Virus record (IMG/VR): IMGVR_UViG_3300014697_000001
Coordinates: 96,001 to 160,000 of that record
DNA from: a virus
Lineage: Duplodnaviria; Caudoviricetes
Reading direction: 5' to 3' (one strand)
Length of the DNA: 64,000 bases
The notes under the pieces: model-generated
The model's input: the letters and a program-made list of their open reading frames with translations, nothing else
The model's database searches: none
Told to the model about the DNA's origin: nothing
Made by a program: the position numbers and the translations under genes
Shown here: in pieces, positions 36,987 through 37,691 of the stretch
Layout: every line of letters begins with the position of its first letter
Position numbering within the stretch: the stretch's first letter is position 1

Positions 36987-37691
36987 TTAACGGCGGCCAC
37001 GGTTTGAATGGCAGTTCGAGTGGCAGCTCGAATGGCAGACAGGGACGTTCGAGTGACAGCTCGAATGGCAGCTCGAATGGCAGACAGGGACGTTCGAGTG
37101 ACAGCTCGAATGGCAGACAGGGACGTTCGAGTGACAGCTGGCATGGCAGCTGGCATGGCAGCTGGTGTGACAACTTGAATGACAGCTCGAATGGCAGTAT
37201 GTCGTTGTGAGTGTCTCAACCACCGGGTTTCCAGCTTTCGACCACCATTCTTGATAAAGCGCGTTACAGTAATTGACAAACCCTTGGCTGGTCGCATCAC
37301 TGCCGGACAGCAGTGGAGAGGCCGATTGGCCCGTCAGTCCCGCAGGTCCGGTTGCATAGTTGCCGATGGCGGTTGCATCGAATCGCGTTAGAAGGCTGCC
37401 ATTACTGTTGTAATAGACGATCATGCGCTTTTTACATGCCTTGGCAAATACCGACACGAACGCCTTAAGCGCGGTGTTGATTTTTTCCGCCGTAGCGTTT
37501 CCGTCGAACGCGGTTGTGGCGCTGGTGAGGCTTGGCATGTTTGGGGCTGCTTTGGTCCCTGCAAACCAACTCGCCGGGATGTATGCATTGGGGATGTTGT
37601 CGTTACCATAAACGATCTGGGACCTGATTTTGTCCCCAATCAGCAGGTTAACATCCGCTATTGCTTGGGTCTTACCCAAATTTGTAGCCAT
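36987..37691 (-). CDS. putative modification substrate with C-terminal (Cys-His-x-Ser/Asn)14 repeat
   Basis: 234 aa; residues 166-230 are [23 protein letters not shown] units, then RGRR. Confidence 0.8.
   Translation of the reverse strand: [234 protein letters not shown]
37002..37196 (-). repeat. coding tandem repeat (12-bp and 33-bp units)
   Basis: perfect 33-mer GCTCGAATGGCAGACAGGGACGTTCGAGTGACA at 37026, 37071 and 37104. Confidence 0.95.

Follow-up and report, generated by a model that had tools for sequence, protein, structure and literature searches.

Why would a large phage encode, within a block of six radical S-adenosylmethionine (SAM) genes, a protein that ends in 14 Cys-His units? 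The question is raised by a 64,000-nucleotide stretch of DNA (hereafter the window), positions 96,001 to 160,000 of the IMG/VR virus record IMGVR_UViG_3300014697_000001 (Caudoviricetes). The record has 250,515 bp and is estimated to be 94% complete; the phage is uncultured. A first-pass annotation of the window had described an open reading frame (ORF) coding for a 165-amino acid N-terminal domain fused to a (CHxS/N)14 tail ending in RGRR, and had proposed that its product, here called the tail protein, is a substrate of the enzymes encoded next to it. The analyses described below place the tail protein in a family of phage proteins, one of which has been found in virions. On balance we lean towards the view that it is a fiber- or baseplate-associated virion protein and that its C-terminal units serve as substrates of the co-encoded radical SAM enzymes, which probably form one small ring per unit.

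The Tail Protein and Its Repeat Array

Translation of the ORF reproduced exactly the anatomy that had been described, the N-terminal domain, the array and the terminal RGRR (Table 1). The start codon is located 6 nt past the stop codon of the gene for rSAM1, a radical SAM enzyme, and is preceded, at a distance of about 9 nt, by an AAGGGG Shine-Dalgarno-like site. The array opens with two CHSS units, one CHTS unit and two CHAS units and is followed by RGRR and the stop codon. Since the ORF contains 14 Cys-His dipeptides versus at most two in any other open frame of at least 100 amino acids in the window, the array is far beyond chance. The overlapping “ORFs” found in other frames at the tail are by-products of the repeat. 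One 33-nt block, encoding 11 residues, is present three times without a single nucleotide change; in-frame duplication has thus generated part of the array very recently.

The long region that precedes the array had been taken for a folded domain rather than a leader peptide, and this view was upheld. The AlphaFold2 (AF2) model of residues 1-165 has a predicted local distance difference test (pLDDT) value of 87.6 and a predicted template modeling (pTM) score of 0.82, with three long helices packed on a long beta-hairpin and a last strand, and its conservation extends over hundreds of relatives. Structure prediction of this region as monomer and trimer, together with a fold search, had been suggested as a check. 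The monomer gave a confident fold, the fold search gave no convincing match, and the homotrimer prediction, carried out with three copies of the full protein, returned a score of 0.00, which says nothing either way. On the tail, AF2 produced low-confidence helices only (pLDDT 62-70). A Foldseek comparison with the PDB, using the full model or the N-terminal domain alone, found nothing at E ≤ 0.001, and the full-model fold search returned only generic long-helix matches to the low-confidence tail. In the wide VIA-align search with the N-terminal domain, the best Z was 4.5, and some matches to baseplate or TssK proteins, few in number and at Z 3.1-3.9, were too weak to use. The BFVD structure search returned family members only, and the ESM Atlas gave template modeling scores of at most 0.30 in the structure search and no usable match in the feature search. 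A cyanophage nozzle protein (E 0.16), the sole match of a sequence-profile search of the PDB, was dismissed.

A Phage Family with a Conserved Cys-His Tail

A word-indexed search with the tail protein found 135 relatives, the lowest E value for a metagenomic member being 9e-44. When 1.84 billion representatives were searched with a profile, 852 clusters (50% identity) were obtained at E ≤ 1e-3 and 617 at E ≤ 1e-10. The tail protein had no match among the Pfam, PHROG or NCBIfam models. A tblastn search with the protein and a megablast search with the locus found no match in cultured phages, whose relatives surfaced only when the enzyme or closer homologues were used as queries. Judging from these searches, the tail protein belongs to a large, unannotated phage family. 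The cultivable phages that have family members infect Pseudomonas, Ralstonia, Burkholderia and Agrobacterium, and both their family proteins and their rSAM1 orthologues are all annotated as hypothetical.

The protein encoded in the window has the traits of this family. Its N-terminal domain of about 160 amino acids is homologous to that of the other members, with the last beta-strand running into the first Cys, and its terminal C-H-x-(S/N/A) units are followed by R-x-RR, with 14 units versus the modal three. Exactly three CH units were counted in 214 of the 249 retrieved members; the R-x-RR end was present in 215 and a CHGS(I/GL) end in 17. The copy number ranges from 2 to 15 across the family, and arrays of at least 10 units were found in only five other retrieved members. 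Against this mode of three units, the array of the window stands out as a rare expansion, in frame and recent, as its three identical 33-nt copies indicate. The spacers between units are also variable, with 0, 2 or 3 residues, some of them including Pro. Because spacers and copy number vary, the units appear to be autonomous.

The canonical pattern, found in 229 tails, is (V/I)-C-H-x-S-C-H-x-(S/N)-C-H-x-(S/N/A)-R-(G/S)-R-R. Position 3 is free across 642 units, where S, G, A, T, N and other residues occur (Gly at about 20%), and position 4 is S, N or A in 637 and Gly in one. The Cys and His residues of the first two units are invariant among 94 aligned homologues, and those of the third unit are at least 90% conserved, a level also reached in the alignment by the N-terminal domain residues W28, P34, A68, R86, D105 and T107.

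In a tree of the N-terminal domain, the protein of the window groups with a short-tailed relative (L011; support 99/95), apart from a clade of proteins with 11-15 units (P0001-P0004/L010; support 99/100). This separation of two long-array clades suggests that array expansion happened at least twice, or that tails were exchanged. A CHSNVPV unit is found in both clades (window 37002-37196 and L010:7995-8678), written with different codons in tails that have about 70% DNA identity, and would reflect a spacer reached convergently or the exchange of a tail cassette long ago.

A candidate bacterial member was also considered. The 4.3-kb contig NZ_JACOQI010000054.1 (L069), from a Dysosmobacter segnis assembly, encodes a 13-unit tail protein together with homologues of rSAM2, rSAM3 and the 249- and 354-amino acid proteins listed in Table 1. 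Its value as evidence for a bacterial host was rejected, since the contig has adapter-like (MCIRDS) and poly-G ends and is nearly identical to a phage cluster of the P0003 type. It is probably phage or contaminant DNA and not evidence for a Firmicute host.

Linkage to Radical SAM Genes

The association of the tail protein with its neighbors was assessed in 56 IMG/VR loci that have a family member, by looking for homologues within 8 kb. A homologue of rSAM1 was present in 55 of these loci and directly upstream of the tail-protein gene in 48. The 249-amino acid protein, whose gene lies on the other side, had a homologue in 54 loci, directly downstream of the tail-protein gene in 52. Homologues of rSAM2, rSAM3 and rSAM4 were found in 51, 48 and 42 loci, respectively, and a homologue of the cupin in 42. 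The window has the gene order of the family, which is cupin, radical SAM/SPASM enzyme, tail protein, 249-amino acid protein and further radical SAM genes. This order is repeated in four Logan/NCBI metagenome loci (L005-L007 and L009), a CHGSI-ending variant included, as well as in Pseudomonas phage pPa_SNUABM_DT01, Agrobacterium phage Atu_ph07 and Ralstonia phage RSL2. When 50,697 phage records were inspected, the 15 with an rSAM1 orthologue were the same 15 that have the tail protein.

This strict gene adjacency makes the tail a credible radical SAM substrate, as the first-pass annotation had supposed, and the pattern of the units would fit a triceptide-like His-x-X3 ring or a thioether from Cys to residue i+3. 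The accompanying idea that the 14 units explain the need for many enzymes had to be abandoned: three-unit relatives (pPa_SNUABM_DT01 and the IMG/VR loci L012, L013 and L015) have the same six radical SAM genes and oxygenases. Phage genome papers list radical SAM genes without a function, and the blocks of DT01-, RSL2- and Atu_ph07-like jumbo phages have been attributed to DNA repair or host metabolism (PMC8541153).

The amino acid sequence of rSAM1, whose probable real start is the ATG at 38735, was compared with curated models. In addition to the N-terminal CxxxCxxC motif, it has Cys residues at positions 251, 254, 270, 309, 312, 318, 322 and 332, and it reaches 28.2 bits against the SPASM model TIGR04085, above the cut-off of 27, which makes it a SPASM-type enzyme. 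The best curated matches were PapB, YhhB, AmcB, anSME and FxsB, which are protein or peptide maturases. The scores (cut-offs in parentheses) were 51.8 (340) for PapB, 49.4 (445) for YhhB, 47.1 (425) for AmcB, 39.7 (370) for FxsB, 25.7 (310) for GrrM/OscB and 19.8 (450) for XyeB, all in bits; rSAM1 is thus not a member of the characterized cyclophane-forming families. In the radical SAM enzymes of the window, the CxxxCxxC motif begins at residues 19-30, leaving no room for an N-terminal recognition element (RRE) of the type found in systems that make RiPPs, peptides produced on the ribosome and modified after translation.

The tail is not restricted to one kind of N-terminal domain. Loci L061-L063 and L068 encode proteins of 131-138 amino acids with an N-terminal domain unrelated to the family (hhalign probability 0.2%) and the same 16-residue (CHxS)3-RGRR tail. 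A 245-amino acid protein of this second system is a remote homologue of the 249-amino acid neighbor (hhalign probability 88.6%, E 2.6e-6). Five atypical CxxxCxxC proteins of the rSAM5/6 type, the only radical SAM type common to the window and the L063-type clusters, are encoded downstream of the tail proteins in L063. The same tail, a 249-amino acid-type protein and several radical SAM genes thus recur as a set around an unrelated N-terminal domain, which makes the N-terminal domain exchangeable and the tail a portable module. The L063 cluster (L063:4943-13015) has two tail proteins in tandem, of 133 and 136 amino acids, after a 566-amino acid fiber-like gene with a weak Peptidase_G2 match. 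The rSAM5/6 type was considered as the universal tail enzyme and rejected because it had no match in five main-type records, two of them at least 90% complete.

Virion and Fiber Evidence

A location in the virion was found for a distant homologue of the tail protein, gp170 of Atu_ph07. This protein has 296 amino acids and a computed mass of 31.894 kDa, in agreement with the published 31.89 kDa, which confirmed the gp170 numbering. It was detected in purified virions by electrospray ionization tandem mass spectrometry, with 8 unique peptides and 35% coverage (PMC6102473 Table S5). The products of the neighboring radical SAM and unknown genes, gp165-169, gp171 and gp172, were undetected in the same virions (PMC6102473). 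By homology, the tail protein of the window is probably structural, as had been anticipated. In gels, gp170 was found in fragments 1-9 with its peak in fragment 1, the top slice, otherwise populated by proteins of 87-137 kDa (PMC6102473); therefore, a stable high-mass form of gp170 is likely. The papers on DT01, SURPRISE13 and FLC6 include no virion proteomics.

Two relatives are fused to additional domains. In one of them (L060:7503-8450), the place of RGRR is taken by a linker rich in Gly and Asp and a Peptidase_S74 domain (PF13884, 44.8 bits versus a cut-off of 22; E 1.5e-11), and another has an N-terminal Gly_rich_2 domain. Peptidase_S74 is an intramolecular chaperone domain and a hallmark of trimeric fibers and spikes; it is absent from the protein of the window. 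The sequence CHGDGPG..GGGV terminates the L060-related proteins P0189, P0201 and P0252, as though they had been truncated at the linker.

A Proposed Pathway and Its Alternatives

In the pathway that we favor, a 165-amino acid folded domain, seemingly a new one, would bear a C-terminal tail of autonomous C-H-x-(S/N/A) units capped by RGRR. Late in infection, the co-encoded radical SAM enzymes would modify this tail, with the SPASM-type rSAM1, encoded 6 nt upstream, as the first candidate and the 249-amino acid neighbor as a possible recognition or assembly factor. Residue 4 of each unit could be joined in a ring either to His, through the beta-carbon of residue 4 as in three-residue cyclophanes, or to the Cys sulfur, as in thioether peptides, and the cupin and 2-oxoglutarate (2OG) oxygenases may add hydroxylations. 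The first-pass annotation had suggested that two kinds of crosslink together with hydroxylation could make the tail rigid. Three units would suffice in most phages; here, replication slippage or unequal recombination would have led to 14 units and a longer modified appendage. We favor this pathway because the gene linkage is both strict and portable, because the anatomy of the unit combines an invariant C-H and a free position 3 with a position 4 that needs a beta-carbon, and because variable spacers and copy number are tolerated. It is also favored because rSAM1 is a SPASM-type enzyme with peptide and protein maturases as nearest curated relatives, at scores far below their cut-offs.

Several observations weigh against enzymatic modification of a fiber or baseplate protein. 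The tails have no radical SAM family in common: the type represented by L061-L063 and L068 lacks rSAM1-4, and rSAM5 was unmatched in the five main-type records mentioned above, two of them at least 90% complete, an empty answer that shows little. The distance of rSAM1 from every curated family is large, and it had no match by sequence in the PDB. The placement at the fiber or baseplate draws on the gene neighborhood and the two domain fusions, and the N-terminal domain had no informative fold match. The loading buffer used for Atu_ph07 lists no reductant, and the high-mass form of gp170 may be linked by disulfides only (PMC6102473). For every member of the family, the chemistry of the tail is purely an inference, as are the action of the radical SAM enzymes on it and the fiber or baseplate location; what the analyses show is the anatomy of the sequence, the existence of the family, its gene linkage, the recent expansion and, for one homologue, the place in the virion. 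Finally, tails rich in Cys and His are also classic metal ligands.

This last property is the basis of the alternative that survives best, an unmodified metal-binding tail, raised in the first-pass annotation as a metallothionein-like tail, which we nevertheless regard as unlikely. The Cys and His residues, possibly from three chains of an oligomeric fiber, would chelate Zn, Fe, Cu or Ni and stabilize the appendage, as His-x-His does in T4-type fibers, and the radical SAM enzymes would act on another substrate. In T4, gp37 and gp12 bind Fe and Zn, the ligands being repeated His motifs located on the axis of the trimer. It is in keeping with such a role that Cys and His are the invariant residues, that the Peptidase_S74 fusion points to a trimeric fiber, and that no radical SAM family is universal to the tail-bearing loci. 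Low-confidence AF2 helices, as obtained on the tail, are expected if a ligand or partner is missing. However, metal binding leaves unexplained the constant company of several radical SAM genes, even when the tail is on an unrelated N-terminal domain. It also leaves unexplained why position 4 is limited to S, N or A, with Gly nearly excluded, when position 3 is free. Furthermore, variable, Pro-containing spacers fit a regular axial metal ladder poorly.

Stapling between proteins seems less probable still. The Cys residues, made reactive or crosslinked directly, would join the tail to another virion protein or to neighboring copies, with RGRR as a docking signal. In the top gel fragment, the 31.9 kDa gp170 reaches its peak among proteins of 87-137 kDa, and it is smeared over fragments 1-9, as a stapled protein might be, but ordinary disulfides could explain the high-mass species in a gel with no listed reductant. 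rSAM1, rSAM3 and rSAM4 have anaerobic sulfatase maturase among their better-scoring relatives, although the radical SAM scores are too weak for function assignment. The last unit and the Arg that follows it (C-H-x-S-R) have the Cys-to-Arg spacing of the sulfatase C-x-P/A-x-R motif. However, Arg is found at +4 in the last unit only, and position 3 of that unit is mostly G, S or N, with Ala in 6 of 229 tails and Pro absent among the residues listed.

A classical RiPP precursor, in which the N-terminal domain is a long leader and a modified Cys/His peptide is cleaved off and released as a diffusible product, for example a metallophore, toxin or signal, is very improbable. The cluster does resemble RiPP clusters in having a repeat-bearing gene beside SPASM-type radical SAM enzymes and oxygenases, and multi-core precursors with repeated units are described for triceptides (PMC11499958). 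However, when the gene string between 25628 and 44482 was searched with Pfam and PHROG, no transporter or dedicated RiPP protease was found, the sole peptidase-labeled match is weak and falls on the baseplate-hub-like gene at 25628-26359, the N-terminal domain is confidently folded and widely conserved, a homologue is stably present in the virion, fusions to fiber-type domains exist in some relatives, and the enzymes, with CxxxCxxC starting at residues 19-30, have no N-terminal RRE region.

The Gene Neighborhood in the Window

The features of the tail protein and of the co-oriented genes around it are collected in Table 1.

Table 1. The tail protein, its parts and the surrounding gene string, with positions in the window.
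Feature	Position	Strand	Remarks
Two tail-fiber-like virion genes, 479 and 760 amino acids	39315-43079	minus	Head of gene string; phrog_2163, 13857, 11029; E down to 1e-128
Small cupin/JmjC-like oxygenase	38737-39270	minus	Where seen in relatives, usually just upstream of rSAM1
rSAM1, radical SAM/SPASM enzyme	37698-38765	minus	CNLNCDHC (CxxxCxxC) at residues 24-31; seven-Cys C-terminal region
Tail-protein ORF	36987-37691	minus	234 amino acids and stop, ATG start; member of the Cys-His-tailed virion-protein family
N-terminal folded domain, residues 1-165	37197-37691	minus	AF2 model; no known fold match
Array of 14 C-H-x-(S/N) units, residues 166-230	37002-37196	minus	VPV spacer in three units
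Three identical 33-nt copies	37026-37136	minus	37104-37136, 37071-37103, 37026-37058
C-terminal RGRR	36990-37001	minus	R-x-RR end in 215/249 retrieved family members
249-amino acid protein of unknown function	36219-36968	minus	phrog_20767; directly downstream of tail protein
354-amino acid protein of unknown function	35151-36215	minus	Conserved only in closer relatives, 16/56 loci
rSAM2	34159-35157	minus	CxxxCxxC protein
rSAM3	32614-33750	minus	CxxxCxxC protein
rSAM4	31604-32557	minus	CxxxCxxC protein
rSAM5, atypical	30595-31620	minus	CxxxCxxC protein
rSAM6	29559-30614	minus	CxxxCxxC protein
Four 2OG-Fe(II) oxygenase-like genes	26990-29126	minus	Distal end of co-oriented gene string
Baseplate-hub- or peptidase-like gene	25628-26359	minus	Last of string; phrog_4928, E 9e-66; phrog_196

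With tail-fiber-like genes at one end of the string and a baseplate-like gene at the other, the modification genes are thus bracketed on both sides by tail and baseplate genes. The counterpart of the last gene in DT01 is annotated as a putative transglycosylase. At 29559-31620, rSAM5 and rSAM6 are tandem paralogous CxxxCxxC proteins of 341 and 351 amino acids that match phrog_31457 only and none of the Pfam or NCBIfam radical SAM models. The sole sizeable break in this tight string is a 408-nt gap between rSAM2 and rSAM3 (33751-34158), where DT01 has a 59-amino acid ORF (gp061). In Pfam at E ≤ 1, no match was found for the 249-amino acid protein and only a meaningless one for the 354-amino acid protein; the 249-amino acid family also had no PDB match by sequence.

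Significance

Radical SAM maturases are known for small secreted peptides, for cofactors and, recently, for one bacterial defense effector, and a literature search found no paper on the C-H-x-S motif or on a phage structural protein modified by radical SAM enzymes. If the favored pathway is correct, a conserved phage route for modifying a virion structural protein would put radical SAM chemistry to a new use and would represent a new kind of virion maturation. It would also assign a role to the radical SAM genes that are grouped, puzzlingly, in blocks of four to six in the DT01-, RSL2- and Atu_ph07-like jumbo phages. The presence of cultivable phages in the family makes the hypothesis directly testable, and the 14-unit variant is a natural “multi-core” substrate that would make per-unit mass shifts easy to read.

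More tentatively, these findings led us to propose that giant phages use RiPP-type radical SAM chemistry and oxygenases to mature their own particle, through covalent rings or crosslinks on the portable C-H-x-S/RGRR tail of a fiber-associated protein. The number of units would evolve fast by in-frame slippage, from 3 to 14 in the present case, and the appendage would thereby be tuned in its length, rigidity or binding. More remotely, a virion-borne H-x-S-like tail could act at DNA entry, mirroring or countering the bacterial His-Xaa-Ser (HXS) defense.

Comparison with Known Systems

HXS is an anti-phage system in which HxsA, a protein with His-Xaa-Ser repeats, is matured by the radical SAM enzymes HxsB and HxsC with HxsD (PMC13128918; TIGR03976-03979), and the modification of HxsA was mapped to an S-H-R-S-S motif (PMC13128918). 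As in HXS, the candidate substrate in the window is a folded protein rather than a short peptide, has tandem H-x-S units and is encoded together with several radical SAM enzymes. However, the enzymes are not orthologues, with 25.6 bits against HxsB (TIGR03978, cut-off 370) and 18.7-27.7 bits against HxsC (TIGR03977, cut-off 267.9). The HxsD and HxsA models had no match, and the tail protein itself had none in NCBIfam or Pfam. Unlike HxsA, the phage protein has an invariant Cys before each His, H-x-S only within C-H-x-S units and an RGRR end, and it has no signal peptide or peptidoglycan-binding domain. HxsA is a bacterial periplasmic defense effector, whereas the tail protein is phage-made and, to judge from gp170, packed in the virion.

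A C-H-x-S array was also found in archaeal sequence. The contig CAZGDN010000013.1 of an archaeal metagenome-assembled genome (L071:5460-8728) encodes a 487-amino acid HxsA-like protein with an N-terminal hydrophobic segment, (HSS)n and then 11 consecutive C-H-x-S units, mostly CHSS. It has weak HxsA3/HxsA4 matches, and genes for two HxsC-like radical SAM enzymes (TIGR03977, 211 and 93 bits), in divergent placement, lie on either side of it. This looks like an HXS-like system with a substrate that holds the phage-type unit, and the presence of (HSS)n and C-H-x-S units beside HxsC-like enzymes links C-H-x-S arrays to the His-Xaa-Ser paradigm.

Triceptides (PMC11499958) are three-residue cyclophane peptides made by radical SAM/SPASM enzymes such as XyeB, YhhB, HaaB, HtkB, FxsB and GrrM/OscB. 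The tail shares with them, at the level of the motif only, tandem H-x-(S/N/A) repeats, in which an aromatic residue (His) is followed by any residue and then by one that has a beta-carbon, Gly being almost absent from the last position. A SPASM-type enzyme is encoded next to it, and cyclophane synthases are among the best curated matches of that enzyme. On the other hand, all these matches are in the range of 20-50 bits versus cut-offs of 310-450, the putative substrate is a 165-amino acid folded virion protein domain rather than a leader peptide, and an invariant Cys precedes each motif.

Ranthipeptides and sactipeptides, such as PapB/freyrasin with its six C-x3-D units and SCIFF, also have regularly spaced Cys units beside a radical SAM/SPASM enzyme. 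In contrast to them, the PapB score of rSAM1 is 51.8 bits versus a cut-off of 340, which does not place it among these maturases, and the phage system has no acidic acceptor residue and no RRE domain. Moreover, His is as invariant as Cys in the tail and is not required in thioether systems. QhpD, which forms thioethers in QhpC, illustrates that a subunit within a protein complex can be crosslinked by enzymes of this kind.

Metal-stabilized and Peptidase_S74 fibers resemble the phage system in the location of the gene beside tail-fiber genes, in the one S74-fused member and in the repeated metal-ligand residues of the tail. They differ from it in that the sites of T4 gp37 and gp12 are His-x-His, whereas the tail has Cys-His ligands with a period of 4-7 residues, and in that dedicated radical SAM enzymes accompany the phage tail protein and none are known to accompany T4-type fibers. 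At the level of the enzymes, the phage system proved not to belong to HXS, the triceptides or the thioether systems, which it resembles in logic rather than in family. The nearest described systems are HXS and the triceptide cyclophanes, followed by the ranthipeptide and QhpC-type thioethers.

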